Origin: Anaerolineae bacterium | GTDB taxonomy: Bacteria > Chloroflexota > Anaerolineae > Anaerolineales > Villigracilaceae | DNA length: 64,000 nt | Reading direction: 5' to 3' | Assembly: GCA_030123675.1 (NCBI GenBank) | Contig: JASJYH010000004.1 | Span: 184-64,183 of the forward strand | Shown here: positions 26,393-53,004 of the stretch, in pieces | Layout of the letters: every line of letters begins with the position of its first letter | Position numbering within the stretch: the stretch's first letter is position 1 | Made by a program: the position numbers and the translations under genes | The notes under the pieces: generated by a model | Told to the model about the DNA's origin: nothing | What the model saw: only the letters and a program-made list of their open reading frames with translations | The model's database searches: none

Positions 26393-26399
26393 ATCATTC

Positions 26400-29700: not shown

Positions 29701-29706
29701 TATTTA

Positions 29707-34659: not shown

Positions 34660-35413
34660 ATTCTATTAACTCCTGAGCCAGTAAGCGATATTGTTGAGAG
34701 CCGCGGGTACTCGATTTATATTGTGTAATTGGCATTCCTGCGATTGGGCTTTCACGCAGCTTGGTGTCGATTTCTATGACCGTATTAAAAAGGCCTTTGC
34801 CAAAGGTGGATTTCAATTGTTCTTCAATATTGCGATGTGTACGGTTTCGCCGATCTAACATTGTTATAAGTATTCGATATGCTAGATCTGGATTGGTATC
34901 ATCTCTCAAGCGCTTTATTAACCCCATCATATTTCGGAGGGCATAGGCAGAGAAAAATTCAGCTTGCGTAGGAATAATTAATAGGTCGGCTGCTCCTAAC
35001 GCATTTTGAGTTATTGCACCAAGAAAGGGAGGGCAATCGAAAATCAAATAGTCATATGGTAATGGTGCTGCATTTTCAATTGCCTCACGCAAAATTCGGG
35101 TATAGTTTGTGCGAATTGGGAGGTATTGTTCGGCACTCTCGATGTTAGGATGCGCAGGAATAATATCAATTTCTTCGATATCTGTTGATTGCTTAGCGCT
35201 CATTAATGATGCTGCTTCTATAAGGATATTACTTGAAGAAATAGACACCTCATTTATTTCTAACCCTGCGGCCAGGGTTAAGTTTGCTTGTGGGTCTAAA
35301 TCTATCAGTAAAATTTTATTTCCTGCCTCTGCTAAGCCTGCGCCTAGTGACATGGTCGTTGTTGTCTTGGCTACGCCTCCCTTTTCATTTGAAACTGCAA
35401 TTGTATAGGTCAT
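34628..35413 (-). CDS. Orphan ParA/MinD-family ATPase (deviant Walker A)
   Basis: 261 aa. AVSNEKGGVAKTTT deviant Walker A and LLIDLDPQANLT. No ParB-like gene is adjacent. Its ATG overlaps the upstream TAA by 1 nt (TAATG). Confidence 0.85.
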   Translation of the reverse strand: MTYTIAVSNEKGGVAKTTTTMSLGAGLAEAGNKILLIDLDPQANLTLAAGLEINEVSISSSNILIEAASLMSAKQSTDIEEIDIIPAHPNIESAEQYLPIRTNYTRILREAIENAAPLPYDYLIFDCPPFLGAITQNALGAADLLIIPTQAEFFSAYALRNMMGLIKRLRDDTNPDLAYRILITMLDRRNRTHRNIEEQLKSTFGKGLFNTVIEIDTKLRESPIAGMPITQYKSSTRGSQQYRLLAQELIEYVKEEIKQQA

Positions 35414-37734
35414 TACTTCTCTCCTACGCTTTTTATGGTTTGGGGAGCATTGTTATTATCTGGATTGGGTGTCCTATCTTTAGACATAGGCGGACTTTCT
35501 GGCCCTTGAAGGACATGGGGTATCAATTGAACATGGGTTGCACCCAATGCAATTTTTAATTCTTCAATGGCAGTTTGGATAATTTTATCGGGATCATTTG
35601 TGCTGCGAATTTTACCGGAGATGTCTGATACTAAGCGTTCACGTTCAGCACGTCTTGTTATTTCTTCAAATAGGCGTGCGTTTTCTGCCGAAAGAGCTAC
35701 ACGTTCTGCAACCGCATTTACCAACTCCATTTGGTCTTCCCCGAGATCGTAATTTTCAGGAACTTGAACAGTCAATGTTCCAATTGGTTCACCACGAATT
35801 TTAATAGGGACTGATACACGTTTCGTCTCATTATTGCTATCGCTTTGGCCTCCATCTGACAATATTGCATCTATATTGTCAGATGATTCCAATGGAGTGG
35901 CACCGCGAGCATCGTAACGATAGCCTGCAAGGTCTTGTTCCCTTGATAGCTTGCTCCATGCCTGGCGAATGTACTGTCTATATAATGTTTCAGATTCTGC
36001 TAGGGATCTGCGTGTTTGATCAAAAAGACGTGCGTTTTCGATTGCTAAGCTTACTTGATCTGCCAATAGAGTTAGCACATTGATATCCTCATCATTAAAT
36101 GCAGCTTCTACTGTACTTTGAACATCCAATGCACCGATAATTTGGTCTCCAAATTTTAATGGAAGGGCCATTTCTGATCGCGTATCCGGCAATTCTGGAT
36201 TGTCGAAGAACACGGCATCCTCACCAACGTCTAGGGCTATGCGGGGTCTTCCAAGCGCGATGGAATATCCTACTATACCTTGCTCACCGATTTTGAGTTG
36301 ATGCCCACGTTCCAACATTTTTTTACCACCCTCACTATTGGCCGCACTTAGAACTGCATACTCATCAGTAGAATTGTTAAGGAAAATACCTACCTGGTAA
36401 TAACCAAATTGTTGGCTGATCACTTCAGTAATTTTGGGCAATACGTTCTCAATGGAGCGGACAGAAGTAATTGCGCTACCAACCAGGGTAATTGCTTTGA
36501 GCTGATTTGCACGTTGTTCAATCTGCTCATTTGCTTTTTCTAATTCAATAGTACGTTCTGATACCCTGTCTTCCAAACCGCTAAATAGCTCTTGTATTTG
36601 ATCAGCCATAGTATTGAAAGAATTTGCGAGGCTGACCAACTCAATACCACCAGTGATTTGCACTGATTGGTTTAAATCACCTTGCCCTAGCTTTTGAGCT
36701 GTATCTCTGAGCTGGTTCAACGGCCCAATGATGCGCCGCGTTAACACGAATGCGGCCAATGATCCTACTCCTAGGGCCACCAAAGATATTATTATCAAAG
36801 CCAATCTACCATTTCCACTGACAGATTGCAGTTGGAAACCTACCCGATTAAGAGCTTCAGTGCTTTCTTGGCGGATGTGGTTTGTGGTTTTGTTAATCTT
36901 TAGTAATTCTTCTCTTAAAATAATTGTGTTGGCTTCAATATTTGCGTCTAGCACTGCCAAGCCTGTTAGATTGTTTCGAATTACCTTGATAGATTCGACC
37001 AAATTTGAGGCAGGTATTGGTATTGTATTTGCCATCAAATCATCCTCCGAACTGTTTTGTACCAGTTCACCAAAATCTATGGTTAATAATTGAAGGTTGT
37101 CATAATATTGGCTCTGGCCTGTGTTTAAGAATGATTGTGAATCAGCCTGAATTTTCAAAACAAGTTGATATAGCTCAGGATTATCAAGAGGGAGAACAGA
37201 GTGTTCAAGTTCGTTAAGCGTTGTTTTTAATGTGATCTCTGGACCATCAGGAGCACTGCGCTTTTCAATATCAGTAACAATAGCTTGAAAGGCAGTTTCA
37301 TAGGCGTCTACCGAAAGACCCAGGCCTGCGGTTTCAGATAGAATATGTTCTATTTCTGGATTGTCGGATCTTTGAATAAAATCGTCTAATTCCCTTAGCG
37401 AACTGCGGGCTAACCCAAGGTGCGATTCAAAAGGAATGAGATAATCTGTTTGAACTCTCTCGAATCCAAGAGTGCGCCATGCAGACAGGAAATTTGTTTG
37501 ATCATGGCGGGCCAGCATGAACTCAGGTTCGATTTCGTGATTCAAGACACTAATATTTTTGGCTTCTTCCAGAGGAATACTTACATTGGTGCTCAAGGTC
37601 TGCAAGCTAAAATAACCGACCCCTGCAATAATTAGGGCCAAACCAAGAATGACCCCGAACATCAATCCGAGTTGGGATCTAATTGAGCCAGTTACACGGT
37701 TAGGATTTGATGAAGTTCTTGAAGATAATGTCAT
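35413..37734 (-). CDS. Receptor-like paralog 1: TM, ~265-aa extracytoplasmic helical domain, TM, HAMP, S-helix, GAF, conserved C-terminal module. No recognisable output domain.
   Basis: 773 aa. HAMP (IIGPLNQLRDTAQKLGQGDL...), S-helix LEDRVSERTIEL, GAF core FGYYQVGIFL...FDNPELPDTRSEMALPL...IGALDVQS...LADQVSLAIENARLF, and tail ...AERVALSAENARLFEE..RRAERE..ISGKIRS....IIQTAIEEL. Confidence 0.85.
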   Translation of the reverse strand: MTLSSRTSSNPNRVTGSIRSQLGLMFGVILGLALIIAGVGYFSLQTLSTNVSIPLEEAKNISVLNHEIEPEFMLARHDQTNFLSAWRTLGFERVQTDYLIPFESHLGLARSSLRELDDFIQRSDNPEIEHILSETAGLGLSVDAYETAFQAIVTDIEKRSAPDGPEITLKTTLNELEHSVLPLDNPELYQLVLKIQADSQSFLNTGQSQYYDNLQLLTIDFGELVQNSSEDDLMANTIPIPASNLVESIKVIRNNLTGLAVLDANIEANTIILREELLKINKTTNHIRQESTEALNRVGFQLQSVSGNGRLALIIISLVALGVGSLAAFVLTRRIIGPLNQLRDTAQKLGQGDLNQSVQITGGIELVSLANSFNTMADQIQELFSGLEDRVSERTIELEKANEQIEQRANQLKAITLVGSAITSVRSIENVLPKITEVISQQFGYYQVGIFLNNSTDEYAVLSAANSEGGKKMLERGHQLKIGEQGIVGYSIALGRPRIALDVGEDAVFFDNPELPDTRSEMALPLKFGDQIIGALDVQSTVEAAFNDEDINVLTLLADQVSLAIENARLFDQTRRSLAESETLYRQYIRQAWSKLSREQDLAGYRYDARGATPLESSDNIDAILSDGGQSDSNNETKRVSVPIKIRGEPIGTLTVQVPENYDLGEDQMELVNAVAERVALSAENARLFEEITRRAERERLVSDISGKIRSTNDPDKIIQTAIEELKIALGATHVQLIPHVLQGPESPPMSKDRTPNPDNNNAPQTIKSVGEK

Positions 37735-37812
37735 AGTTTTTGCTTCCCGATACCTATTTAGAGGTATCTAGAGATTTCATTGCATAATAGAAACGCAATA
37801 TATTGAATCTTA

Positions 37813-40620
37813 TTAGATTTGTTCTTCCGCTTTATTGGTACCATTACTGTCAGAATTGAATTGAATGATTATCTCAGAACCCGGTATACCGCGTCCAAGT
37901 TCTTCAACAGCAGTTTCTAGCACATTTCGTAGATTGATTGATGAGCCGATCTTTGCCGTTATTTCGCTAACAATATTTTCTTTTAAGGCTCTGCGGGTTG
38001 TTTCTTCAAGCAATGTGGCGTTTTCTATAGCAGTTCCAACTCTTTCAGCAAGCACCTCAAGTATTTCTGTCTCGTCTTGATTCAACTTTCTGTTTCCAGG
38101 GAGGTTAATGTTTATCGAACCGATCAATTGATCTCGAAGTTTAATTGCGAGGGCTTGTGTTGAATCATTTGATTTTGTCGGCGTATCCAGTGAACGGACG
38201 GTTGTCCCAGAAAGCTCGTAACCAACTACTTTACGCTTACCGGCTATTTTCTGCCAGGCTTCTAGCGTGTACTCTGCTACGACTGTTTGCGCATCAGTCA
38301 GTAGGCGTTGGGAAACTTCAAAAAGGCGAGCGTTTTCAATTGCCACACTAATTTCGTCAGCAAGAATTGAAAGGACTTCAATATCCTCTTCAGTGAAGGC
38401 ATCTGCTTCAAGACTCTGCACATCTAATGCGCCAATAATTTTTGAACCTACTAGTAGCGGAAGGGCCATTTCAGAACGGGTGTCTGGAAGTTCGGGGTTA
38501 TCAAAGTGAATAGCGTCATATCCCGTATCTAATGCGATTCTAGCTTCGCCAGTGGAGGTTACGTAGCCCACAATACTGGTTTGTTCAACTTTTAAGCGGT
38601 GTTTTCGTTCTAGCATTTTTTTCCCACCTTCACTGCTTGCGGCATTAAGAACAGCATACTCTCCGCTTTCATCTAGTAAGAACAATCCTACTTGATAGAA
38701 ACCGAATTCTTTACTAACTAAATCTACTGTTTTAGGGAGCAATGTATCCAATTGTTGAACGGTAGCAATCGTACGAGCGAGTTGAGCGACAGTTTTGAAC
38801 TGACCTGCTCGGGTTTCGATTTGACTTGCACTTATTTCAAGTTCCTCTGTACGGTCGGCTACACGTTGTTCTAACTCAGATAGATTATCTTGCAATTTAG
38901 TATTCATAATATTAAATGCAGACGCGAGCTGCCCAATCTCATCGTTCGATTCGATAACCGCGCGAGCGCTTAAATTGCCTCCCGAAACTTCATTTGCAGT
39001 TTCGGTAAGGTTAAGGATTGGATTAGCCAGAACCTGAGCAACTAAAAAGGACAGTAAGGTTGCAATTCCAACTATGATGGTTCCGATGAAACTGGTTAAA
39101 CGCACTTGTTGGCGGACGGGAATGAGGGCTTCATCCTTATTTAAATGAATAATGGTGAACCAATTCAAGTCATTAACTTCTGGCACATCGGCAACAGTTG
39201 TGACTTTAGCGGTTGAGAAAATATTTTCTTCGCCCTGAAATTCCCTGATGTCATAAACCTGATTGGATTCTTGAAGCTCAACAATATGTGTAATAACAAC
39301 CGGCGAGACAATTTCAAGTTGACCTGTATTTGTTTGAAATTCAAGATTTTGCTCGCCAGTAAAAATAATATCCAACATAGCTGGATCATCAATGAGTTCT
39401 TCACCAAGGGTTGATTGTATTAATTTTTTTAATGATATTGTAGTTTTTAAAATACCGTTTACTTCGGAATTAGTTTCATCGAGAATTGGCACAGCAATTA
39501 ATATTATATGATTGTTTGTATTTTCATCGAGAACAGGAGAACCAATATAAACTCCCCCCTTGCCATCGTTATAGGCTGATTGCCACCATAATTCCTCGGC
39601 ATGATAGTAAACTGGCGGTACATTATTAGCGCCTACTAGTGCACCTTTTTTATCTGTAACCAAAGTGTCGATGTTGTTTGGGAAGATTGCCCGATATCTC
39701 TCAAGGTTTTGAGCTACAGCATTATTTGACAGTAGATTTAGGATACGGTTAGTAGTAGATAAATCGACAATAGCGGCTTGATACTCTTGATCAATTTTTT
39801 GAATATTGTTGAGATTTTCAGCTTCATTGTCTGAATAGGTTACGTTTTTCTGGTCAATAGCAACTTGAAGAGTATCATTTAAGGCCAATGATTTTAATGA
39901 CTGAACTTGGTTGCTCAGTAAATCGCCAACAGCCTTACCGCGTGACTCGACAAGGGCATGTAATTGTTCTCCAACTTGATTTGTCAACGTTCTGGATGTT
40001 AATGTAACCATCACAATGTTGAATGTCGTACTGATTAAAACTACAACTGCTAAAATTGTGATTAAAACTTTACTGGCAAGCCTTAATTCTGCAAATTGAT
40101 ATATGGCCTGAACTAAAAATATTACCGTAGTACCTCGAGCTGCCCATATAATGACTGCCTCACCAATAGCATCACCAGTCTGGAGAATAGGTGAATAAAA
40201 TGCCAAAATACCCGATATAAGGCTTATTGCCAGAGCGATTACAAGACTTCGAATAACGAGATTGGTCGGTAGACATTGAATACCAATAACAAGAATAATG
40301 ATCAGGATAGCCAATCCAACTTCAGAACCAACGTTAGCCTGAGTAGCTGATATGAGCAAACCCGTTAAAATTATTGCCGCCATCAAATGCCAAACACCGA
40401 TAGCTGGGTTCTCTTCATCTCTTGTTCGGATAATTGTTTGGGAGATAGTTGCTATTATATAAAATGTTCCTGCGATAATAAAACTGAACAAGTTTTGAGT
40501 TGAGGTGCCTCGGAAGAAGAAAAGGATGGCTCCGAACGGGGCCAGAATAATAGGAATTCTAGCAAGGCGAGCAAGATTATCTCCAAGATTATCCCCTAAA
40601 CCAATAGGATTAAAACTCAT
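37813..40620 (-). CDS. Receptor-like paralog 2: ~6-7 TM, Cache-like extracytoplasmic domain, TM, HAMP, S-helix, GAF, C-terminal module
   Basis: 935 aa. Cache-like WWQSAYNDGKGGVYIGSPVLDE...LIAVPILDE, HAMP, LEQRVADRTEEL, GAF core FGFYQVGLFL...FDNPELPDTRSEMALPL...IGALDVQS, and tail LAERVGTAIENATLLEE..RRALKE..EITAKIGSSINLRNVLETAVEELG. Confidence 0.85.
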   Translation of the reverse strand: MSFNPIGLGDNLGDNLARLARIPIILAPFGAILFFFRGTSTQNLFSFIIAGTFYIIATISQTIIRTRDEENPAIGVWHLMAAIILTGLLISATQANVGSEVGLAILIIILVIGIQCLPTNLVIRSLVIALAISLISGILAFYSPILQTGDAIGEAVIIWAARGTTVIFLVQAIYQFAELRLASKVLITILAVVVLISTTFNIVMVTLTSRTLTNQVGEQLHALVESRGKAVGDLLSNQVQSLKSLALNDTLQVAIDQKNVTYSDNEAENLNNIQKIDQEYQAAIVDLSTTNRILNLLSNNAVAQNLERYRAIFPNNIDTLVTDKKGALVGANNVPPVYYHAEELWWQSAYNDGKGGVYIGSPVLDENTNNHIILIAVPILDETNSEVNGILKTTISLKKLIQSTLGEELIDDPAMLDIIFTGEQNLEFQTNTGQLEIVSPVVITHIVELQESNQVYDIREFQGEENIFSTAKVTTVADVPEVNDLNWFTIIHLNKDEALIPVRQQVRLTSFIGTIIVGIATLLSFLVAQVLANPILNLTETANEVSGGNLSARAVIESNDEIGQLASAFNIMNTKLQDNLSELEQRVADRTEELEISASQIETRAGQFKTVAQLARTIATVQQLDTLLPKTVDLVSKEFGFYQVGLFLLDESGEYAVLNAASSEGGKKMLERKHRLKVEQTSIVGYVTSTGEARIALDTGYDAIHFDNPELPDTRSEMALPLLVGSKIIGALDVQSLEADAFTEEDIEVLSILADEISVAIENARLFEVSQRLLTDAQTVVAEYTLEAWQKIAGKRKVVGYELSGTTVRSLDTPTKSNDSTQALAIKLRDQLIGSININLPGNRKLNQDETEILEVLAERVGTAIENATLLEETTRRALKENIVSEITAKIGSSINLRNVLETAVEELGRGIPGSEIIIQFNSDSNGTNKAEEQI

Positions 40621-40663
40621 ATTTTCTCCAAATTAAAAGTCCACTTTTCATTTTTTTCGAATG

Positions 40664-42367: not shown

Positions 42368-42469
42368 ACATAGCCTCGTAAAGGAATATTAGTTCGATTT
42401 TGAGTATTGTTCTTTACTCTAAAAACTTCCATCAATATTATTTTTAGACTTCTAAATCAGATACAAAGA

Positions 42470-43855: not shown

Positions 43856-43940
43856 TCTATTTTTCCATGCAGATTTATTATGATTTTAGCCAATCGGTCA
43901 GAAGATTTGATATTTTTGATCGTGCATATCCATATTCTTA

Positions 43941-46427
43941 TTAAATGTCTGACCTTAAATCTGATTCTAATTCAAGAAGTACATTTGTTCCACCAAGTTG
44001 TCGACCTAATTCTTGCACTGTTGTGCGTAGTATTTCTTCAATATTCGTCGTTGCACCAATTTTTAATGCCATTTCGCCAATAGATTGCTCAAGAGAGGCA
44101 CTGCGCTGGGCATCTTCAAATAAACGAGCGCTATCTAATGTATTACCGATTTCACCAGAAAATGAAACAACATCTGAAATCTCATCGGGTGACCAAGGAT
44201 CATTTGAAGATTGTTTTTCGAGACGCATCATACCGATTGTTATGCCGCGGGAGGAAATGGGTACACTTAAGGTTCTTTGGTCTTTGCTGAGAACAGGTTT
44301 TCCCTTATTAAGCTCTTTCTTAACTTCTGGATCTAAAGTTCCATTTGATTCAGACAACTCACCGTGAATAGAACTGATATACCCTGGGGCCGATTGGCCT
44401 TGTAGCAATAATCTCCATCCGCTCTGGCTGAGCTTGCCAGTGGCCCTGTGAGACCTGGAGAGTGCCTCTTGTATTTCATTCAGCAAAAGTGCGTTTTGGA
44501 TTGCTATGGCCAATTGATCGGCTAATATTTGGAGGGTTGGAATATCATAATCTGAAAATGCATCCGACTCGTTGCTCTGGACGTCTAATACTCCAAAGAT
44601 TTCGCCACCAGAAACGAGGGGTAAGGCTGCTTGTGAATGTGTTTCTGGCAAATCCGGATTGTCAAATTTCACTGCATCTTCGCCAATGTCTAAAGCAATT
44701 TTTGCAACACGATCACTTGCTGCCGTACCCACAATTCCTTCAACCCCAACCTTTAATTTATATTTGCTGGCAAGCATTTTTTCGCCCCCTTTACTGTTGG
44801 CTGCTCTCAGGATCACATAATCATTGAGAGAGTCGACCAAAAATATTCCTACATGATAATATCCAAACCTATTGCTAATGAGGTGTACCGCTCGAGGTAA
44901 GAGATCTTCCAAAGTTCGTTGCTCAGCGATTGCCTTGCCAACTTCTGCTACTGCTTGTATATGTCCAGCGCGTCTTTCTATGTCCCTCGTGCGTTCCGCA
45001 ACAGCACCTTCGAGATTTGTGATTAACCCTTGGGCGGTTGTTGTAACGCTATTTAGCGTTCTCCCCAAGACACCTATTTCATCCCCAGATTTAACTTCGG
45101 CTCTCTTATCGAGATTGCCTGCAGCAACCTCATTTGCCACCTTTGTTAGTCTATCTAACGGTGAGATTATGGAGGTACCTATTCCGTAGGAGGCTAATGC
45201 TGATACAGCGAGCATAATTAATATTATTCCAACTGCACTTGTGAGAGTTTCTTGAGTTTGGGTTTCTATGATTGTATTTGTTGCTACAAAATCTTCAAGC
45301 AATTCATTTTCAGGGACAATTAAACCTAGGCTGAAACCGACTATAGGAATTGGCTTATAAGCGATATAACGATTGCTGCCATTAATATTTATAAGACGCA
45401 CTCCTGACTGACCACTTGTCATTTGCGTGAGCACCTCATTAACCTCTGAAGAGACGCGACCTATTAATGACAGCTCGGCAATATTTACGCTTTGAACTTC
45501 TTCAAGGGTCAAATTGAAATCTTGATACGCAGTTTCTGGCATCTCGAGCAATCTACCTTCCGAATCAATAAGGATGCTATATCCTGAATTTCCTATAGAC
45601 AATGCGCCTACTCGATCAGTTATTGAAGAAAGGTTGAAGTCTATTCCGGCAACACCTCTAAACTCACCGTTGGTATCATAAACTGGAACACTACTGGTTA
45701 CAAACAATCCGGTTTGTGCTGAATTTTGCCAAGGTATCGACCAAACTGCCTTATTGTCAAGTTGTGATACTTTCAATGAACTTTGATACCAAGGAGTGCT
45801 TGTAACACTATAATCCAAGGGTAGGGTAGCAGCTAAATTAATATTCGGGTAATACACGGTTTCCCCTAGATTTCCACCAAAATATACTGCTTCAATTTCC
45901 GGATTTTCAATAAATAATCCTTCTACAAAAAGATCAAGTCCTTTTAGGGCAGCCAACTCAATCGCGATGCTGTCATTTAGCGGAATTGTGCCCGGAAGGA
46001 AAATTGATGAAGCCTCTGAGTTTGAATTATCAAGGGATCCGTTAGGTAGTTGTTTCAATTCCAAATAAGGATTCCACGGACTTTCATCTGAAAGGGGAGA
46101 TCCATTATTGGAGATTACTGTTCCAGTGATAGTACCAAAAATTTCGGTTACATTTTTCAATGATGAGAACAAAAATGCAATATCACTAGCTTCATCTGAA
46201 GCAATCACGGCCAACCGATTTTCGATCTCTTGAGTCACACTCATATCAAATTGATCTACTAAAAAATTATTGGTTTCTCGTGAGCGCGAAAGAACAAAAT
46301 ATCCCATAATTGAAACTGTAATGAGAACGATAAATAAGTTGCCTAATAGGATTTTCGTTTTCAACGAAAAGGAATAACGCAGTTTGGGATTAATTGCTGT
46401 ACCCGTTGAACCTTGATCATCGGTCAT
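43941..46427 (-). CDS. Receptor-like paralog 5: TM, double-Cache-like sensor, TM, HAMP, S-helix, GAF, C-terminal module
   Basis: 828 aa. dCache-like WYQSSLK...VTSSVPVYDTNGEFRGVAGIDFNLSSI...GYSILIDSEGRLL; HAMP; LEGAVAERTRDI; GAF core FGYYHVGIFLVD...FDNPDLPETHSQAALPL...FGVLDVQS. Start overlaps the upstream stop (ATGA). Confidence 0.85.
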   Translation of the reverse strand: MTDDQGSTGTAINPKLRYSFSLKTKILLGNLFIVLITVSIMGYFVLSRSRETNNFLVDQFDMSVTQEIENRLAVIASDEASDIAFLFSSLKNVTEIFGTITGTVISNNGSPLSDESPWNPYLELKQLPNGSLDNSNSEASSIFLPGTIPLNDSIAIELAALKGLDLFVEGLFIENPEIEAVYFGGNLGETVYYPNINLAATLPLDYSVTSTPWYQSSLKVSQLDNKAVWSIPWQNSAQTGLFVTSSVPVYDTNGEFRGVAGIDFNLSSITDRVGALSIGNSGYSILIDSEGRLLEMPETAYQDFNLTLEEVQSVNIAELSLIGRVSSEVNEVLTQMTSGQSGVRLININGSNRYIAYKPIPIVGFSLGLIVPENELLEDFVATNTIIETQTQETLTSAVGIILIMLAVSALASYGIGTSIISPLDRLTKVANEVAAGNLDKRAEVKSGDEIGVLGRTLNSVTTTAQGLITNLEGAVAERTRDIERRAGHIQAVAEVGKAIAEQRTLEDLLPRAVHLISNRFGYYHVGIFLVDSLNDYVILRAANSKGGEKMLASKYKLKVGVEGIVGTAASDRVAKIALDIGEDAVKFDNPDLPETHSQAALPLVSGGEIFGVLDVQSNESDAFSDYDIPTLQILADQLAIAIQNALLLNEIQEALSRSHRATGKLSQSGWRLLLQGQSAPGYISSIHGELSESNGTLDPEVKKELNKGKPVLSKDQRTLSVPISSRGITIGMMRLEKQSSNDPWSPDEISDVVSFSGEIGNTLDSARLFEDAQRSASLEQSIGEMALKIGATTNIEEILRTTVQELGRQLGGTNVLLELESDLRSDI

Positions 46428-48106
46428 ATGTTGTTTTCCTCTTTAGGTTTTGATGAAGGTGCCTTACCATTTTTCTTGCTGGCATCTACATTATCCTCTT
46501 GCAGCAAGCGCACTTCAGCTTCTTGTAAATTAAATGCTTGTTGGATTTCACGAGCAGTCGTTTTAAGTACCGTCTCTAAATCTAAAGTTTCCCGTATTTT
46601 AGAGGTTGCATTTGATATTAATTTGTCTCGATTTGTGCTTTCTCTGGATCGTTCAATATGCCGAATGTTTTCTAATGCAAGAGCGGCCTGATCTGCAACT
46701 TCTTTAGCAATTATCTCTTCTTCCTTGGTCCATTTTTGAAAATCAGATTTACGGTGTAAAGAGATTATTCCAATTTTTTGGCCTCTAAGTACCAAAGGTA
46801 CGTCCACACTGTTTTTTCCTTTTTGAGATTTTGTTTTTGTTATGGGACGAACACCAGAGTTTGAATACTGGTATGCCAATTTTCCGGTTTCTAATTCAAC
46901 TTTCCAGTTCTTTCGAATGTTTTCTCCAGATATTTTCTCTAGTTGCTTTATTACTAATTCAGTCTCACCGATAACTCGGGCATTTTCAATGGCTACCGCC
47001 ATATGATCTGCAAGGGTTTGATATATGTCTAGGTCTTCATATTTAAATGCTTCAAGCTCAGAAGAATGTATATCTAACACTCCTATCACTTTATTTCGAA
47101 CAATGAGTGGTACTGCTATTTCTGAACGTGTCCTAGAAAATTCTAGGTTTTCTAAAATCATGGGGTCTTTGTCGGTTTCTTGAGAAATTCGAGCTTTCCT
47201 CTCAGCGGCAACGAAACCTACAATCCCCTGGGTTCCAACTCCTAGTCTGTAGCCCTTCTCGATAAGTTGTTTTCCACTTTCCGATGAGGCGGCTTGCAGT
47301 TCCGCGTAGTCTCCACGTTCATTAATTAAGTAAATCCCAACGTGATAATAATTAAATTGCTTTGCTATTAGATCTACGCTGCTATTTAATAACTCTTCAA
47401 GTTCTTTTATTTCAGCAGTCTGGCGTGCAACAAAAGCAGAAGTTATTAATTTATTTGTTCTTTGGGTTAATTCTTTTGTTCTTTCGATGACACGGTTTTC
47501 CAATTCAGTTTGTGATTTGTGTAATGTGGCTAGAATACTTTCGGCACGCATTTTAACCTTATTGAAACCCTCATACATCATTGAAATGCCCAACAGAACC
47601 ACTAATGTAATTAGTAAATGAATCGAGCCTGCGCCAACCCAATCTAAAATAGTTCCTTCAACCATCAGCTTGTCAGCAAGTGAAAGATAATTGTTGAGCT
47701 GTAGAAATCCCATCCCAATGATAACGATCTCGCTAAGTATTATTGCAGTCCAACCAGCACGAGTGCCAATTAACAGAGCAGATAGGGTTACAAATGCCAA
47801 CAAAAAGAATAACCCATCTCCTCGAATCCCGGTTTCTAACAAATCGCCAACCCCAATTATTAAGGGCAAGGAAACGAATAAAGTTGCTTTAAGCTTATAT
47901 GGGATATTAATGATGATCGAAAAAACCAGCGTTATATATACCCCAATGTAAATACTCTGTAAATAAAAATCAGTGGCGCTCATTACTGCTGGTATTAATG
48001 CAAATAACCCAAGGATTGCGGAAATGACGAGAATCTTTTGGAGGAAACTTTTCCGCCAATTATCTTGCTCAAGTGTGTGTTCTTGTTTTAGTGATTCCAA
48101 TGTCAT
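46424..48106 (-). CDS. Receptor-like paralog 6: polytopic membrane N-terminus, S-helix, GAF, C-terminal module
   Basis: 560 aa. About 5-6 TM, LENRVIERTKEL, GAF core FNYYHVGIYLIN...SRTRSEIAVPL...IGVLDIHS, and tail VADQAALALENIRHIE...ATSKIRETLDLETVLKTTAREI. ATGA overlaps at both ends. Confidence 0.85.
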   Translation of the reverse strand: MTLESLKQEHTLEQDNWRKSFLQKILVISAILGLFALIPAVMSATDFYLQSIYIGVYITLVFSIIINIPYKLKATLFVSLPLIIGVGDLLETGIRGDGLFFLLAFVTLSALLIGTRAGWTAIILSEIVIIGMGFLQLNNYLSLADKLMVEGTILDWVGAGSIHLLITLVVLLGISMMYEGFNKVKMRAESILATLHKSQTELENRVIERTKELTQRTNKLITSAFVARQTAEIKELEELLNSSVDLIAKQFNYYHVGIYLINERGDYAELQAASSESGKQLIEKGYRLGVGTQGIVGFVAAERKARISQETDKDPMILENLEFSRTRSEIAVPLIVRNKVIGVLDIHSSELEAFKYEDLDIYQTLADHMAVAIENARVIGETELVIKQLEKISGENIRKNWKVELETGKLAYQYSNSGVRPITKTKSQKGKNSVDVPLVLRGQKIGIISLHRKSDFQKWTKEEEIIAKEVADQAALALENIRHIERSRESTNRDKLISNATSKIRETLDLETVLKTTAREIQQAFNLQEAEVRLLQEDNVDASKKNGKAPSSKPKEENNI

Positions 48107-50037
48107 GATTTGCTCTTTTCCCCATTAACCTCAATCTCGATAGTTGCTTCAGAAGCATCTAACACTAGACCCAATTCTTTAACCACGGTTTGAAGTATTC
48201 CATCGATTGTTGTTGAACCCCAGATTTTATTTGTAATCTCATTAATAATATTTTCTCGGATAACAGTGGTTTGACTTTCTTTTATTAATCGGGCATTTTC
48301 AAGTGCAATAGCAGTCTGGGTACCAATTGCCTGCATCCAGGTTTCATCTTCTGGTGATAATCTTTTTTCCCCTGAGAGACTAAGCTTACCAATAACTTGA
48401 CCTCGAAGTGCTACCGGCACTTCAATTTTGGTCCCTTTTGACTTATCTGGTTCATTACCAACGGATATTGATAAGTCCCCAGGGGGTATATTTTTCTCGA
48501 GCCATGCTTCATGTAAATATTGTTTTTGATCTTTTCGCATTTCTTGTAAGCCCTGACTTATCTCTTGATACAGTGATGAATTTCCTATTGCTATTGCAAG
48601 CTGGTTTGCTAAGCCCTGCAAAGTATCAAGGTCTTTTTCGTTAAAATCAGCCTCTTTTGTTGATTGCAGATCGAGCGCACCAATAATGCGATCACCAATT
48701 ATTAATGGCAAAGATACTTCCGATCTTGTATATGGAAGCAGTGGATTGTTAAATTTTATTGCTTTTTCCCCAATGTCGAGTGCAATCTGTGCCTTTCGCG
48801 AACGAATACTTAACGCGATGAGGCCTTGGTCGTTTATGTCGAAGCGATGATTGCTTTCCACCAATACCCGACCGGCTTCGCCGCTCGCGCCCTTGAGCTC
48901 AATGTGTCGGCCGTTAGGGTCGGTAAGATAGATTGCAGCATAGTAGTACTCAAATTCTTCAACTATTATATTTACAACCTGATTAATAAGCTCCTTTGTG
49001 TCAAGAGTTGAAGTTGCAACAAGGCCAACTTTCATTATTGATTTTAACTGTGCTGTTCGGTCTACGATTTCCTTATCTAAACTAGTTTGCAAGCTCTCTA
49101 ACCTTGTGGCTAATCGATTGAAGTAAATAGCTAAGTCAGATATTTCATCTGACGAGGTTATATTGGCCCGTTGTGAGAGATCACCCAAATCAAACTTTTT
49201 AAAGGTTTCATTAATATTTTTTACCTGATCTGAAATAGATCGTGAAACAATTAGTGAAAGTAATAGCCCTAATAGAAGGATAACTCCACTCATCAAAATA
49301 AATTGAAATTGAAGGTCTTGTAATACCTTTTGGGCTGACACTTCTTGATTTAATGCTATAACTGCTTGGTTGTAACCTATTGGGCCAATTATTAATATAC
49401 TTGCCAAAAGAAGCAAAGAAACGAGTGCTTGTACTTTTATTCCTAATAATGGTACCGTCCGGTCTGATAATTGATACTCAAATTTTGTAGGAAATAATGC
49501 CAGTCTAGCCGGTATGAGCATTCGTTCAAGCAAATAAGTAGCTAGTAAGACTGTAGTGATAACCGAAACAATCCCACCGGTTAATGAAAAAATTACTTGG
49601 TCGAGAGACGAATTAAGTACATAATAATGATAAGAAGTGATTCCCGATACAATGATGATTAATGAAAAAAAACCTGATGTAAGTCCATAGCGCCAAGTAA
49701 ATCCTGTAATTTGTTTCCAGGCATTTTTTTGGAATTCGAAATCATCGTCTGATTTACCAATTTTCTTAATTTGTGTTAATCGCTTTCGTGCTATTTTGGA
49801 GGTCCCGATTGCATATATGAAGAGAATGAATGAGGTAACCAAAATCAACACTGGCAATAAGGTTGTGATTGAACTAAGCTGTTGAGCCCCAAAACTACTG
49901 TTCATTTGAATTGAAGCAACACCTAATATGGTTCCAGGAATGCCAATTAATTGTGAAATGGCTACACAAATAATCAGATACCAGCCCCCAGTTCTGTAAA
50001 ATATTTTGTTGAAAAAAGAACTCAATATTCGAATCAT
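48103..50037 (-). CDS. Receptor-like paralog 7: ~6 TM, HAMP, S-helix, GAF, C-terminal module
   Basis: 644 aa. HAMP (ISDQVKNINETFKKFDLGDL...), LDKEIVDRTAQL, GAF core FEYYYAAIYLTD...LPYTRSEVSLPL...IGALDLQS, and tail IGTQTAIALENARLIKE...EITNKIWGSTTIDGILQTVVKELG. Confidence 0.85.
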   Translation of the reverse strand: MIRILSSFFNKIFYRTGGWYLIICVAISQLIGIPGTILGVASIQMNSSFGAQQLSSITTLLPVLILVTSFILFIYAIGTSKIARKRLTQIKKIGKSDDDFEFQKNAWKQITGFTWRYGLTSGFFSLIIIVSGITSYHYYVLNSSLDQVIFSLTGGIVSVITTVLLATYLLERMLIPARLALFPTKFEYQLSDRTVPLLGIKVQALVSLLLLASILIIGPIGYNQAVIALNQEVSAQKVLQDLQFQFILMSGVILLLGLLLSLIVSRSISDQVKNINETFKKFDLGDLSQRANITSSDEISDLAIYFNRLATRLESLQTSLDKEIVDRTAQLKSIMKVGLVATSTLDTKELINQVVNIIVEEFEYYYAAIYLTDPNGRHIELKGASGEAGRVLVESNHRFDINDQGLIALSIRSRKAQIALDIGEKAIKFNNPLLPYTRSEVSLPLIIGDRIIGALDLQSTKEADFNEKDLDTLQGLANQLAIAIGNSSLYQEISQGLQEMRKDQKQYLHEAWLEKNIPPGDLSISVGNEPDKSKGTKIEVPVALRGQVIGKLSLSGEKRLSPEDETWMQAIGTQTAIALENARLIKESQTTVIRENIINEITNKIWGSTTIDGILQTVVKELGLVLDASEATIEIEVNGEKSKS

Positions 50038-50066
50038 TTTATTCCCTGTATTTTAAGCATCCACAA

Positions 50067-52172
50067 TTAGTCATCGGATTGAAATGTGCCAATTTCTATT
50101 TGTACATTCTGTGCGCCCGTAGCTCTAATTAGTTCATTAACAGTGGTTGAAATAATCGTTCTCATATCAGTAGAATGACGAATTTTACTCGTAATTTCAT
50201 TTAGCTGTCGCTCTCGATCTGCCTGCTTCCGTATCTGTTCAATTAATCTCGCATTTGCGATAATCGCTGCAAGACTTCCAGCTAGCGTTCCTAGCATTTC
50301 TTCGTCATTTTTTGTGTAGGCACCAACTTGTTCACTTTCAACATTTATTACCCCAAGTATGTCATTCCTAAATATTAGGGGAATTGCTAATTCTGATTTG
50401 GTGTTCGGGCTAACTTTTATATAACGTGAGTCTTGCGTGACATCCTCAATCCGCAATGTCTTACGGTGCTCAGCCACCCACCCAGTAATTCCATCACCGA
50501 ATGGTATTGATACAGCTGTTGATTCCTCAGAATATCCAACCCATGCCTTTGTAAGCAAATTTTTATGGTCCGAATCAGATAGCAATATAGCGACTCGATC
50601 CCCCCCCAAAGTCACTTGTAAACCATTAACTGTGCTTGATAAAGCCTCTTCAAGGGTTGTACCTGAAGCAGCCGATGTTGTGATGTGGTGAAGCAACCTG
50701 TGCTGTGAGAGATGTTCTTGAGTTTCTGCAAACAACTCAGAATTGTTGACTGCTATAGCCAGTTGATCGGCGAGGATTTGAAATGTTTCAATATCGTTGG
50801 TGCTAAATGAATATGGGATTGTGCTTTGCACGTCAAGCACACCAAGTATTCTATCTCCTATTTTTAATGGAATGGCTGCTTCGGCTTGTGTGTCTGGGAG
50901 TAAGGGATTAAGTTTATGTGTAGCATCCTTTGAGATGTCGTTCACAACTAAGGCTTCACCTTGGCCTGCAACATAACCAACGGTAGATTTTGATCCAACT
51001 GCGAGTTTATGAGCTTCGCGTTTCATCTTTATGCCGGCATCGCCAGTTGCCTCGCGCACAATTGCATTATTAGATAAGGGATCTATTAGAAATACGGCCG
51101 CATGATAAAAGTTGAATCTGTCCCGGATCAAATTAACTGCTCGCAACAAGAGCTCATTTAAATCAAGAGCGCTACTGATATCGCGAGCAATCTTAGCAGC
51201 GACTTGCACCTGTGAAAGTCGACGTTTTAGACTGTCGAAGCTACGTGCATTTTGCAAAAACCATGCGATTTTTTGAGCAAACTTTTCAAATTCACTTAAA
51301 TCTGATTTTCTAAACGCATTTTCATTCTTGGAGTCCTGCAAAAATAATGCCCCAACTACGTGGGTATCAATGATTAACGGAACACCCATCCATGATTTTG
51401 AGGGAGCGCCGATCCTTTTTGCCCCTGATTTTTCAATCTGTTCTTGGTTTTCTAGCAATAATGGCTTTTTTGTACGTATGATTATTGAAGCAAGTCCTTT
51501 TCCTAATGGGAACGGATCGATTGAACGAGTTACGCCATCTTCAACCATAAAAGGTATGCTGATAGTTTGTTTATTCTCATCGTAAAATGCGATGGTAAAG
51601 TCATCGTGGTTTAATAATATTTTTACTTGTTCATGTAGTGAGTTAAACACAACACTGATATCTTCAAAAGAACCTATAGCTTGGGTTTTATCGCTACCTG
51701 ATATTGAGTCTGAAGATGATTTGGAAATTTCCTCAATTAAATTCGCTTGGTTGAATATTGTTGTAACCAATCTCGCAGAATTGATATAAGGCTGTAAAGC
51801 AGTCTTCGTCAGCTTATGAACACCATTCCCACCAATGAGCAAAACCCCCTGGATCTTTCCTTGGCTTTCGATTTTAATTAAAGACAAATTTTCGGCCCCT
51901 ATTTGGGTTGCGAAATTGAAAATTTCAGGAATGTTAGTTTTTGTAGAGACCGAATCGATTTTTATTTTGTCTTCAAAAAAGTCATTGAAATATTCTGTAT
52001 TGACAGAAATACTTTTGGGTAGGTTTTCTTGGGTAACTTCCCCTGGAATGTTAGATACACTGATGAGTGATAAAGTCTCATTTTCAACCTTAAACACCGC
52101 TATTGGGAATTCTAAAGCTCCCAATGATTTTGATAGAGTTTTTAGGGTGGATGAAACAATATCAGTTCTCAT
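50067..52172 (-). CDS. Receptor-like paralog 8: soluble protein of about four GAF-like domains ending in the same C-terminal tail
   Basis: 701 aa, no TM. Third GAF FNFYHAAVFLID...LPDTQAEAAIPL...LGVLDVQS, fourth GAF ...TKSELAIPL...LGVINVES...IANARLIEQ, and tail RKQADRERQLNEITSKIRHSTDMRTIISTTVNEL. Confidence 0.85.
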   Translation of the reverse strand: MRTDIVSSTLKTLSKSLGALEFPIAVFKVENETLSLISVSNIPGEVTQENLPKSISVNTEYFNDFFEDKIKIDSVSTKTNIPEIFNFATQIGAENLSLIKIESQGKIQGVLLIGGNGVHKLTKTALQPYINSARLVTTIFNQANLIEEISKSSSDSISGSDKTQAIGSFEDISVVFNSLHEQVKILLNHDDFTIAFYDENKQTISIPFMVEDGVTRSIDPFPLGKGLASIIIRTKKPLLLENQEQIEKSGAKRIGAPSKSWMGVPLIIDTHVVGALFLQDSKNENAFRKSDLSEFEKFAQKIAWFLQNARSFDSLKRRLSQVQVAAKIARDISSALDLNELLLRAVNLIRDRFNFYHAAVFLIDPLSNNAIVREATGDAGIKMKREAHKLAVGSKSTVGYVAGQGEALVVNDISKDATHKLNPLLPDTQAEAAIPLKIGDRILGVLDVQSTIPYSFSTNDIETFQILADQLAIAVNNSELFAETQEHLSQHRLLHHITTSAASGTTLEEALSSTVNGLQVTLGGDRVAILLSDSDHKNLLTKAWVGYSEESTAVSIPFGDGITGWVAEHRKTLRIEDVTQDSRYIKVSPNTKSELAIPLIFRNDILGVINVESEQVGAYTKNDEEMLGTLAGSLAAIIANARLIEQIRKQADRERQLNEITSKIRHSTDMRTIISTTVNELIRATGAQNVQIEIGTFQSDD

Positions 52173-52178
52173 GGAAAA

Positions 52179-52628
52179 TTAACTCAATTCCCAAACAGGC
52201 GCACCCTCTAATATTTGGCGAATTTGTTCTGGAAAATGATCGGGGTCTAGAGGTTTTCCTAGGAATCCATCGAACCCTGCGGAACGTGCTTTCGCAAGCT
52301 GTTCGCTACTGGATTCAGCTGTGACTGCGACAATAGGGATGGATTTTAAGTGTTCTGTAGCGCGGATTTTTTTCAAAGCCCCATAACCATCTTCATATGG
52401 AAGGCGAATATCCATAAGAATTAAATCAAGACGAGGAAGAGTATCAGCATATTCTACTACCTCATAGCCTGAGGTTTTCCACTCACAATGAATACCAAGA
52501 TAACCGAGCATGCGAGCAATTAATACGAAATTAGATACATTATCTTCTACTACGAGGACAGTTGTATCCTTTGGAATTGCTGGTCTTCTGGGTTTTGTAT
52601 TAGTAGTTTTTGATTCAGTGTCTGCCAT
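52179..52628 (-). CDS. Single-domain CheY-like response regulator (receiver only)
   Basis: 149 aa. VLVVEDN, LILMDIRLPYEDG and FLGKPL motifs. Lies 6 nt upstream of paralog 8. Confidence 0.85.
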   Translation of the reverse strand: MADTESKTTNTKPRRPAIPKDTTVLVVEDNVSNFVLIARMLGYLGIHCEWKTSGYEVVEYADTLPRLDLILMDIRLPYEDGYGALKKIRATEHLKSIPIVAVTAESSSEQLAKARSAGFDGFLGKPLDPDHFPEQIRQILEGAPVWELS

Positions 52629-53004
52629 CTAAGCTCCTCAGGAAGTGCTCAATTTGACTCGAGAGCAAATCAATGTCTATTGGTTTTTGTATGTATCCAT
52701 CACATCCAGCTTCTAATGAGCGTTCGCGATCTCCCCGCATTACATTAGCCGTTAAGGCTATGATGGGAATATATTCAAGACCAGGTGTTTTTTTTATCTT
52801 GGAGGTTAGAGAATACCCATCCATATCCGGCATATTGATATCCATGAGAATTAGGTTAGGCTTGGTTTCGTTTAATATCTCCATAGCTTGAGCAGCATCT
52901 GTTGCTTCTAAAAGATCATATCCTTCAGACATTAGTATCCTTCTAACAAGTGTTCGGTTGTCGATATTATCCTCGACATATAAGATTGTGGCATTGTTTG
53001 ACAT
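52615..53004 (-). CDS. Single-domain CheY-like response regulator (receiver only)
   Basis: 129 aa. ILYVEDN, LILMDINMPDMDG, IALTAN and YIQKPI motifs. GGAG SD upstream. Overlaps the next receiver gene by 14 nt. Confidence 0.85.
   Translation of the reverse strand: MSNNATILYVEDNIDNRTLVRRILMSEGYDLLEATDAAQAMEILNETKPNLILMDINMPDMDGYSLTSKIKKTPGLEYIPIIALTANVMRGDRERSLEAGCDGYIQKPIDIDLLSSQIEHFLRSLDGRH

Follow-up and report, generated by a model that had tools for sequence, protein, structure and literature searches.

Eight adjacent genes on the minus strand occupy positions 35413 to 52172 of the window, that is, of the entire 64,000-nt stretch of DNA that was analyzed and to which all coordinates refer. 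They encode proteins of 773, 935, 567, 461, 828, 560, 644, and 701 amino acids (aa), designated G1 to G8, and the open reading frames matched exactly the sizes and positions given for these tandem genes in an earlier note on this DNA. The operon, likewise on the minus strand, has the order REC, REC, n receptors, ParA-like ATPase, hybrid histidine kinase (HK), threonine-synthase-like-REC enzyme, and EamA exporter. Its first two genes encode the single-domain response regulators REC1 (52615..53004; Pfam Response_reg, 100 bits) and REC2 (52179..52628; 74 bits), which overlap by 14 nt. Beyond the receptors, the ATPase and the HK are followed by a threonine-synthase-like PLP enzyme with a C-terminal REC domain (29707..31377; Pfam PALP, 211 bits; Response_reg, 71 bits) and, 6 nt further on, by an EamA/DMT-family transporter as the last gene (28735..29700; Pfam EamA, 105 bits). 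The PLP-REC enzyme scored 256 bits against the NCBIfam threonine synthase model PRK08197, under the cut-off of 303, and is likely the phospho-regulated output of the operon. Genes within the operon are spaced by −32 to +102 nt, and this spacing suggests that they are co-transcribed; consensus scans of the operon for promoters and terminators remained at shuffle level.

Each receptor has its own sensor. In G1 to G7 this is followed by a signaling helix (S-helix), a core GAF domain, a reduced GAF, and a short stub of a further GAF. G1 (35413..37734) carries a periplasmic domain of ~265 aa between two transmembrane (TM) segments, a HAMP domain, and a ~35-aa extension after the stub, and G2 (37813..40620) begins with six TM segments, a Cache-like domain (partial dCache), a further TM segment, and HAMP. 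G3 (40664..42367) has a ~110-aa periplasmic domain between two TM segments and a sub-threshold HAMP. G4 (42470..43855) is a minimal receptor with only a TM hairpin ahead of the S-helix, while G5 (43941..46427) has a dCache_1 domain (65.9 bits) between two TM segments and HAMP (48.6 bits). G6 (46424..48106) carries MASE11 (6 TM; 62 bits), and G7 (48103..50037) carries a 5-TM sensor and HAMP. G8 (50067..52172) lacks TM segments and shows three Pfam GAF matches behind an N-terminal GAF-like region. It contains a core-type GAF (aa ~325 to 485), a complete extra GAF in place of the reduced GAF of the other seven, and the terminal stub. Pfam and TM prediction thus agree with the earlier description of eight different N termini. 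HAMP had been claimed for five of the eight proteins; it exceeded the Pfam cut-off in G1, G2, G5, and G7 and fell just under it in G3 (22.9 versus 25 bits). The claimed ERT signature of the S-helix, as L[ED]x[RAE][VI]x[ED]RT, was present in seven of the eight but not in soluble G8. TM segments were predicted in 283 of 287 complete receptors. The receptors are modular, in that the transmitters are 56 to 74% identical in the closest genomes, where the sensors of G1 and G3 have been replaced (21 to 23% identity).

The common C-terminal ~330 aa could be aligned collinearly across all eight receptors, as had been claimed, at 28 to 49% pairwise protein identity. The GAF domain within it also held up, since GAF or GAF_2 scored 58 to 162 bits in every receptor against Pfam cut-offs of 22 to 29 (in G3, GAF_2 at 68.9 bits; aa 265 to 404, 41156..41575). 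A profile over 256 non-redundant receptors gave the subtype motif FGFYH...SEGG...GIVG...NP.LP.T.SE.ALPL...LD.QS, in which the loops are very highly conserved and include two His residues, at 92% and 89%. Two AF2 models reached pLDDT values of 94.5 (G3 aa 224 to 567) and 90.3. With Foldseek, the G3 core GAF matched the PtsP GAFs 3ci6 and 3trc at target-normalized TM scores of 0.76 to 0.82, and PtsP, fRMsr, and Nlh2 GAFs together spanned 0.74 to 0.82 (also target-normalized). GAFs that bind cyclic nucleotides (1ykd and 5w10) were found as fold matches ranking below these and were absent among the sequence matches. Cys did not exceed 1% in any column of 332 aligned modules (0.02% overall). Because no Cys is conserved, both the attachment of a bilin chromophore, as in phytochrome and cyanobacteriochrome GAFs, and the chemistry of free methionine-R-sulfoxide reductase were excluded, the latter despite structural matches to 3mmh, 3rfb, and 3ksf. 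No known ligand motif was identified in the core GAF.

Behind the core GAF, the transmitter continues with a GAF reduced to four strands. A junction helix of the kind that joins one GAF to another follows, and then a further GAF begins but breaks off after ~45 residues, where the protein ends. In G3 the four β-strands (aa ~436 to 490, 40898..41062; residues 218 to 257 of the AF2 model) lie between two long helices and match Pfam GAF positions 93 to 133; in a PDB profile search they matched the C-terminal halves of GAF domains. The junction helix and stub of G3 (aa 491 to 567, 40667..40897; model helices 268 to 312 and 317 to 331) gave profile matches to 8w26_A (150 to 251 and 10 to 53) and 6oap_A (116 to 181). 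The earlier note had described a further conserved terminal module; its conservation was borne out, but it is itself GAF derived and not catalytic. The claimed lack of an output domain was upheld by sequence, profile, and structure searches. Pfam, NCBIfam, and PADLOC found only HAMP, Cache, MASE11, and GAF domains in the receptors, and the C-terminal ~150 aa matched no catalytic family in Pfam or NCBIfam, only GAF. The PDB profile search with the tail returned only GAF ends, GAF-GAF or GAF-PHY junctions, and GAF starts, and in Foldseek the whole module matched GAFs exclusively and the tail alone gave no match better than E = 0.1. In 355 orthologues the protein closes in the same way, the median length beyond the stub being 7 aa, and across the 256 non-redundant receptors the junction helix and the stub stand out as an island of conservation. 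On these two grounds, the truncated ending is taken from the sequences to be a selected feature.

We considered the possibility that the receptors are decayed or misassembled HKs that lost their DHp-CA part and are functionless remnants or assembly truncations. Their layout is indeed that of the input half of NarX-type kinases, and in long-read assemblies the genes of some relatives are broken into two open reading frames. However, all eight frames in the window are intact, the 355 orthologues that share the ending come from 80 genomes assembled independently, the C-terminal modules are 56 to 74% identical between species with their motifs conserved, and identical proteins occur on several independent contigs. 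These conservation data effectively refute that explanation, which retains next to no probability.

The earlier note had judged the DNA of the paralogs by eye to be clearly diverged yet still alignable in the GAF core. The core segments that it named (about 36125 to 36207, 38423 to 38505, and 41247 to 41329, among others) were 61 to 71% identical, and the array contained no long near-identical repeats. The level of protein and DNA identity supports the proposed old duplications, as does the finding that the copy next to the ParA-like gene carries a G1-type C-terminal module in 68 of 74 genomes; dS was saturated in the receptor comparison. Nor are the receptors randomly distributed singletons, an outcome that the note had named as speaking against its proposal. 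Arrays of 3 to 15 or more receptor genes recur in Anaerolineales with conserved partners, and the operon is nearly invariant in at least 80 species of this order. In 69 of 75 loci the gene directly upstream of ParA encodes a receptor, and downstream of ParA follow the HK (65/65 loci), the ThrC-like-REC enzyme (54/54), and EamA (53/53). The REC-REC pair heads the array in loci L002, L003, and L038, and in L003 the first gene after the pair is the G8 orthologue. An exhaustive search returned 9,255 clusters below E = 1e−30. Databases label the receptors only "GAF domain-containing protein," and no prior description of this receptor system was found in the literature. A conserved operon with a single soluble HK and a ParA-like ATPase points to a signaling system in which many receptors serve one kinase.

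The hybrid HK (31390..34659) consists of a leader, a partial GAF fragment, GAF, PAS, a core-type GAF, HisKA, HATPase_c, and two REC domains. It has no TM segment, and 58 of 62 orthologues are likewise TM free. Its kinase-proximal GAF (aa 441 to 580, 32920..33339) is of the receptor core subtype, giving BLASTP scores of 100 to 136 bits against the receptor cores versus at most 58 for any other GAF in G8 or the kinase; a neighboring conventional HK reached at most 53 bits. The N-terminal fragment (aa ~82 to 135, 34255..34416) resembles β5-β6-α5 of a GAF and is homologous to the tail of the receptors. A hidden Markov model of that tail matched all 62 kinase orthologues within their first ~50 to 175 aa, the match beginning at profile position 38 to 76 (mostly ~45 to 73). 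The absence of TM segments, the common GAF subtype, and the partial GAF fragment link the receptors to this kinase. The kinase has PAS and GAF inputs of its own, so external receptors are not strictly needed, and no fusion of receptor and kinase was found; the longer relatives sampled were pure poly-GAF proteins.

A common GAF subtype might also mean that receptors and kinase bind the same intracellular small molecule and never touch. Candidates for the ligand are nucleotides and metabolites, perhaps even what the PLP enzyme of the operon makes, and the receptors would be signal-gated binders or buffers of it, or would integrate it with an external signal. The PtsP/EI-Ntr and NifA-like (Nlh) GAF families, the closest solved relatives of the core GAF, are small-molecule binders. 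Furthermore, the loops with their two His residues are conserved beyond the need of a mere spacer, and the PLP enzyme and exporter are conserved in the operon. Such coupling by a diffusible ligand leaves unexplained, however, why every receptor ends in a conserved reduced GAF, junction helix, and stub; buffering would demand stoichiometric amounts of membrane protein, and the core GAF offers neither a known ligand motif nor a conserved Cys. We therefore regard it as unlikely.

The ParA/MinD-family ATPase (34628..35413; Pfam AAA_31, 161 bits; CbiA, 71 bits) carries the deviant Walker A sequence NEKGGVAKTT (pattern KGGxxK[ST]), and NCBIfam placed it in no specific subfamily at its cut-off. It is the best-conserved protein of the locus, 67 to 82% identical in 80 Anaerolineales genomes, and is always encoded between receptors and kinase. 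It is translationally coupled to the last receptor, G1, whose stop codon overlaps its start (1 nt), and its own end overlaps the kinase start by 32 nt. In 68 of 74 genomes the adjoining receptor belongs to an orthologous group of its own, and it frequently bears a C-terminal extension or the motif GNGAxK; ParA/MinD ATPases are known to position protein cargos, receptor arrays included (PMC11407121). The receptors might thus act mainly on the ATPase, as cargo or regulators of a positioning system that would, for example, place a membrane complex or serve division or filament architecture in these filamentous bacteria, with the kinase parallel or downstream. Positioning alone does not account for the diverse sensors, for transmitters built with HAMP and S-helix, or for a GAF subtype in common with the kinase, and no ParB-, ParP-, or McdB-like adaptor was recognized in the operon. 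We consider a mainly ParA-directed role quite unlikely, although it is compatible with, rather than exclusive of, signaling to the kinase.

On balance, it is probable that the eight genes encode kinase-less co-receptors of a multireceptor two-component system that is conserved across Anaerolineales and feeds one shared kinase. Synteny, the soluble kinase, and the common GAF subtype support the idea of ligand-specific receptors converging on a shared partner. Each receptor combines its own sensor (a periplasmic domain, a Cache domain, a polytopic membrane module, or the cytoplasmic GAFs of G8) with one rod-like transmitter made of HAMP where present, S-helix, core GAF, long helix, reduced GAF, junction helix, and GAF-start stub. 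The core GAF is most likely an in-line transmitter on a dimeric helical spine, as in NarX/NarQ-type kinases, and the spine would end in a conserved noncatalytic tip where those kinases have DHp-CA. The tips may contact and regulate the single soluble hybrid HK encoded just downstream, which carries the same GAF subtype beside its DHp and begins with a partial GAF that complements the stub. The kinase would then phosphorylate the RECs of the operon, namely, the two single-domain response regulators and the threonine-synthase-like-REC enzyme, which is paired with the EamA exporter. The ATPase may position or partition the receptor-kinase assembly, as ParC and PpfA do for chemosensory arrays. A phospho-regulated threonine-synthase-like enzyme with an exporter hints at signal-controlled release of a metabolite, which would be relevant to syntrophy. 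The system is nearly universal among Anaerolineales, filamentous bacteria that abound in digesters, sediments, and anammox communities but are still poorly understood; such a role would also assign a definite function to a very large group of output-less GAF proteins that lack annotation.

More tentatively, the receptors might dock by completing a split GAF domain in trans, the stub supplying the first helices and strand and the kinase fragment the last hairpin and helix. Domain complementation would in this way let many different membrane receptors engage a single soluble kinase, and the result would be a ParA-partitioned, GAF-based lattice controlling synthesis and export of an amino-acid-derived compound. 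We think it unlikely that all of this holds; if it did, it would be an analogue of chemosensory arrays built from entirely different parts. The receptors and G8 could instead be structural elements that assemble, head to tail or side by side, into GAF filaments or lattices resembling giant single-chain poly-GAF proteins, with a function unrelated to the kinase. Such giants (1,100 to 3,950 aa), which have no output domain, match the tail profile at 6 to 21 junctions, and the same stub ends 40 of the best 150 of them. The giants, however, lack a complementary half-GAF start (an early partial match was seen in only 15 of 132), whereas the receptors possess bona fide signal-input and transmitter modules and always occur together with a two-component kinase and REC proteins. 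Pure scaffolding is therefore very improbable.

Three known systems resemble parts of the proposed one. NarX and NarQ have the order sensor-TM-HAMP-S-helix-GAF-like-DHp-CA, in which the GAF-like domain is read as a transmitter (PMC8199190). The receptors share with them a periplasmic sensor between two TM segments, HAMP (five of eight, counting G3), the ERT S-helix (7/8), and an in-line GAF (8/8), and NCBIfam NarQ/NarX models match their HAMP and S-helix part. They differ in that their sensors are not of the NarX type, they end in the reduced GAF and GAF-start stub, and the kinase function resides on a separate soluble protein; because all eight lack HisKA and HATPase_c and the tail matches only GAF parts, they were rejected as sensor HKs.

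Like chemoreceptors (MCPs) with CheA and CheW, the receptors are paralogs with diverse TM-sensor-TM-HAMP inputs, a noncatalytic cytoplasmic rod, and a highly conserved tip, encoded together with a separate kinase, single-domain RECs, and a ParA-like ATPase; soluble G8 parallels the cytoplasmic MCPs, and ParA-like ATPases position chemoreceptor arrays (PMC11407121). They are not MCPs, since none of the eight matched MCPsignal at E ≤ 0.01, NCBIfam MCP models matched the HAMP region only, and Pfam found no CheA, CheW, CheR, or CheB domain among the operon genes. Coiled-coil helices and GAF domains make up the rod, the hybrid kinase is of the HisKA type, and the likely output is an enzyme and exporter rather than a motor. 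In the stressosome, RsbR paralogues with varied sensors and a common C-terminal domain control one kinase (PMC9765535, PMC9237128). Paralogous sensors with variable N termini, a conserved noncatalytic C-terminal domain, and one kinase as the proposed joint target recur here, but Pfam found no STAS match and membership in the RsbR family was rejected. Here the common domain derives from GAF instead of STAS, the receptors sit in the membrane, and a two-component HK takes the place of the serine kinase. Should the receptors prove to serve the kinase, they would represent a third, GAF-based solution for funneling many sensory inputs into one kinase, beside MA-domain receptors with CheA/CheW and STAS-domain RsbR with RsbT.

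The receptor tail is also homologous to parts of tandem-GAF and GAF-PHY proteins, covering the end of a GAF, the helix that leads out of it, and the beginning of the GAF or PHY domain that comes next; weak partial Foldseek matches were to phytochromes and PDE GAFs. Unlike these proteins, the receptors have no conserved bilin Cys and no downstream output, their second domain is cut to four strands, and their third ends after its first helices. A conserved ending in a truncated GAF is structurally unusual, and it lends itself to direct testing.

Eight adjacent ORFs, G1 to G8, had been described in the earlier note as tandem receptor paralogs lacking an output domain, and all eight were recovered on the minus strand at exactly the coordinates (35413-52172) and lengths that it gave. 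By hydropathy scan and Pfam, G1 (35413-37734; 773 aa) has two transmembrane (TM) segments, HAMP, and GAF; G2 (935 aa) has seven TM segments, HAMP, GAF, and a dCache match weaker than that of G5; G3 (567 aa) has two TM segments, GAF, and a HAMP match just under the cutoff; and G4 (461 aa) has two TM segments and GAF above the cutoff. G5 (828 aa) combines two TM segments with dCache_1, HAMP, and GAF; G6 (560 aa) has six TM segments, MASE11, and GAF; G7 (644 aa) has five TM segments, HAMP, and GAF; and G8 (50067-52172; 701 aa) has GAF and no TM segment. These TM counts agree with the dissimilar N termini listed earlier, GAF passed the Pfam cutoff in all eight proteins, and the five HAMP domains claimed correspond to the four that passed (G1, G2, G5, and G7) and that of G3. 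The common collinear C-terminal region of about 330 aa was alignable across G1 to G8 at 28 to 49% identity; the ERT motif of the signaling helix (S-helix) held for seven proteins but not for G8. At the DNA level the paralogs are diverged as had been claimed, the GAF-core segments aligning at 61 to 71% identity with no long repeats, which ruled out recent amplification or gene conversion and bore out the view that the duplications are old and the paralogs kept. PADLOC returned zero matches to anti-phage defense systems.

The C-terminal tail, a stretch of about 160 to 200 aa after the core GAF, received no Pfam call. When scanned alone, all seven tails matched GAF models over the C-terminal part only (GAF positions 93 to 133), and a tail profile searched against the PDB matched GAF ends, GAF-GAF or GAF-PHY junctions, and GAF starts (e.g., 8w26_A residues 150-251 and 10-53; 6oap_A residues 116-181). 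For G3 aa 224-567, AlphaFold2 with a 127-sequence alignment gave a model (mean pLDDT, 94.5) consisting of the S-helix, a complete GAF, a 52-residue helix, four β-strands, a 45-residue helix, and a short helix before the C terminus. Foldseek comparison of this module with the PDB returned GAF domains exclusively (PtsP, fRMsr, Nlh, and phytochromes), and a tail-only model (pLDDT, 90.3) gave weak partial matches to GAF/PHY pieces, none better than E=0.1. Therefore, from the Pfam, PDB profile, AlphaFold2, and Foldseek results together, the tail comprises a reduced GAF, then a junction helix, and finally a stub, which is the beginning (approximately 45 residues) of another GAF and is followed by the end of the protein. 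In the alignment, G8 has a complete GAF where the other receptors have the reduced one. A catalytic tail was ruled out, since Pfam at E<=10, NCBIfam, the PDB profile search, and AlphaFold2 with Foldseek for both module and tail gave GAF-derived matches only; the possibility that the C-terminal ~150 aa belong to a known catalytic family thus fell away, and the claim of missing output domains was upheld by Pfam, which found no catalytic domain in any of G1 to G8. The module contains no conserved cysteine, and so fRMsr-type catalysis and bilin attachment of the phytochrome/CBCR kind were excluded. Two core GAF histidines are conserved, in "FYH" (92% of 332 modules) and "GHRL" (89%), as at G3 aa 284 and 315 (window approximately 41423-41518); cysteines are wholly absent. 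These histidines could have a purely structural role, or they could be the mark of a metal, heme, or ligand site.

Searched exhaustively with HMMER, the tail profile retrieved 70,801 proteins when the threshold was E<=1e-3, of which 9,255 remained at E<=1e-30. The best matches were giant poly-GAF proteins with 6 to 21 junctions matched in each, and the eight giants scanned were pure poly-GAF, with no output domain. Because the tail profile matches the GAF junctions of these giants, the stub is literally the start of a missing next GAF. The same stub forms the C terminus in 40 of the best 150 matches, and across 355 receptor orthologs from 80 related loci a median of 7 residues separates the stub from the protein end. 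Moreover, the junction helix and stub constitute a conserved island in 256 non-redundant sequences, with the consensus ALALENARLLEE.QRRA..ER.I.EIT.KI..S......L.TA..ELG. Truncation or assembly artifact was ruled out by the 355 like-ending orthologs and by the occurrence of the same proteins, unchanged, on independent contigs; the truncated ending is a selected feature. The giant output-less proteins (P0121 to P0270; 1,100 to 3,950 aa) are named only "GAF domain-containing protein" in their sources. In some genomes, a sensor-HAMP ORF is followed by a separate GAF-tail ORF (L001, 4482-7232 and 10680-12864; L002, 8086-10972; L003, 9073-10999), and these may be long-read frameshift errors or true two-piece receptors.

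G1 to G8 lie inside a tightly packed minus-strand operon extending from 53004 to 28735, with gene gaps of -32 to +102 nt. Two REC genes are followed by G8 to G1, a ParA/MinD ATPase (34628-35413; Walker A, NEKGGVAKTT), a hybrid histidine kinase (31390-34659; GAF-PAS-GAF-HisKA-HATPase-REC-REC), a PLP enzyme that resembles threonine synthase and carries a fused REC, and an EamA transporter. The window comes from an Anaerolineae MAG, and NCBI protein names for its genes are generic only. A search for ParA-like relatives, with one genome per species, yielded 462, of which the best 80 were 67 to 82% identical and, with two exceptions that look misbinned, labeled Anaerolineales, Anaerolineae, or Chloroflexota. 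One locus, L073, comes from a MAG assigned to Brevefilum fermentans. When these 80 loci were annotated with purpose-built HMMs, 3 to 6 receptors were found within the 10 kb upstream of ParA, and ParA was followed by the kinase (65/65 loci), the PLP-REC enzyme (54/54), and EamA (53/53). Tail homologs were "GAF domain-containing proteins" from Anaerolineales metagenomes, with arrays of at least 7, at least 7, and about 15 such genes on three long contigs; REC-REC heads two of these arrays, and one contig has a polyprenyl synthase upstream, as in the window. With arrays and partner genes recurring in this way, the notion of randomly distributed singletons was rejected. The receptors might be poly-GAF scaffolds independent of the kinase, as their likeness to the giants would allow; given the kinase in 65 of 65 loci, we consider this very unlikely. 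A tail-bearing receptor lies immediately upstream of ParA in 69 of 75 evaluable loci, an arrangement that would suit receptors acting primarily on the ParA-like ATPase; we regard such a primary action as quite unlikely. Near-identical operon pieces have been assigned to Bacteroidota, Syntrophothermus, and Thaumarchaeota/Nitrososphaerota MAGs (L035, L051, and cluster members); since they are 67 to 100% identical to Anaerolineales loci, misbinning is the most likely cause.

Three results link the receptors to the kinase. One is a division of labor: TM segments were predicted in 283 of 287 complete receptors, and none were predicted in 58 of 62 kinase orthologs. The DHp-proximal GAF of the kinase scored 100 to 136 bits against the receptor core GAFs (34 to 40% identity), placing it as near to the receptors as G6, G7, and G8 are to the remaining ones; the other GAFs of G8 and the kinase reached 58 bits or less. 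Judged by sequence, this kinase GAF is of the receptors' core subtype. In addition, after a leader of ~50 to 170 aa, each of the 62 kinase orthologs opens with a fragment that corresponds by homology to the junction and the latter half of the receptors' reduced GAF, whatever number of GAF and PAS domains come after; this partial-GAF start is not common to the poly-GAF giants. No Rosetta-stone receptor-kinase fusion appeared in eight longer relatives (Pfam) or in 150 top matches, a sample rather than an exhaustive set. Because the tip of the receptor spine is conserved and non-catalytic, we lean toward the reading that G1 to G8 are kinase-less co-receptors, which would regulate the operon's single soluble hybrid kinase; the kinase would then phosphorylate the operon's REC proteins, and the ParA-like ATPase would probably position or partition the receptor-kinase assembly, as ParC and PpfA position chemoreceptor arrays (PMC11407121). 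We infer, rather than show, that receptors and kinase are physically coupled, and likewise which way the signal runs, what ParA does, and what the output is. The receptor stub and the kinase partial GAF may conceivably be halves of one GAF joined in trans; this is doubtful, but if true it would constitute a plug-in docking mechanism. Alternatively, receptors and kinase could be coupled not by contact but by a GAF ligand common to both. The GAF subtype that they share would accommodate this, but the conserved tip would be left unexplained; we hold such coupling to be improbable.

NarX/NarQ-type kinases have the order sensor-TM-HAMP-S-helix-GAF-like-DHp-CA, in which the GAF-like domain is considered to transmit the signal in line, its N- and C-terminal helices extending the dimeric coiled coil (PMC8199190). 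The receptors match them in the input half, whereas the receptor spine finishes in the conserved tip, which is not catalytic. DHp and CA are absent from G1 to G8, which ruled out histidine kinases; that the receptors are decayed kinases, as the input half might suggest, is extremely improbable with the tip so conserved. The proposed co-receptor system is alike in logic to MCP/CheA arrays, but G1 to G8 are not MCPs, since the MA domain and Che genes are absent. It is also alike in logic (many sensors, one kinase) to the stressosome, in which RsbT is controlled by RsbR paralogs that share a C-terminal domain and vary in their sensors (PMC9765535, PMC9237128); the absence of STAS ruled out RsbR identity. 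G1 to G8 belong to the GAF superfamily, in which they form a distinct subtype. No description of the system or its parts was found in the literature searched, which left out most subscription journals, so that absence is unproven; we rate multi-receptor, one-kinase signaling as a known kind and G1 to G8 as a GAF-based version without a description in that literature.

Transmitters (the common C-terminal rods) are 56 to 74% identical to those of the closest genomes. The G1 and G3 sensors, at only 21 to 23% identity, appear effectively replaced, and those of G5 and G6 are kept (57 to 60%). The ParA-adjacent receptor is G1-type by its transmitter in 68 of 74 genomes, often with a different sensor part. 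In the dN/dS comparison of sensor with transmitter, dS was saturated even against the closest genome (81% ParA identity). The picture is one of old paralogs under constraint, with sensors swapped on a fixed transmitter. In receptors directly upstream of ParA (L014 to L028), a G1-type C-terminal strand, "LGAT.V.LIPQ," is conserved; in one G1-type clade it is followed by a linker of ~25 aa and by a "GNGAxK" motif at the C terminus, and the window G1 carries another extension of ~35 aa (35413-35530). Such an extension may serve as a peptide for docking, perhaps with the neighboring ParA-like ATPase as its partner.

The PLP enzyme, with its C-terminal receiver domain, and the EamA/DMT transporter 6 nt on occupy 28735-31377 (minus strand), and this conserved pair suggests, as the system output, an amino-acid-like compound whose synthesis and export are phospho-regulated. 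Upstream of the operon, about 2 kb (53005-55074) is ORF-poor and low in GC (0.37), up to tRNA-Gly(CCC) at 55002-55074; an Rfam scan of 2.5 kb upstream found the tRNA alone and no further RNA family. This region may be the site of the operon promoter or regulatory elements; promoter and terminator scans gave counts at the shuffle level. Beside the operon, a convergent conventional two-component module (23639-28738, plus strand) encodes a GAF-HisKA-HATPase kinase (917 aa), a REC-HisKA-HATPase protein (527 aa), and an OmpR-type regulator; the GAF of the 917-aa kinase falls outside the receptor subtype (53 bits or less). The closest genomes (L004 to L013) have, downstream of EamA, minus-strand ORFs with a weak kinase-profile match, one of which is likewise 527 aa long.
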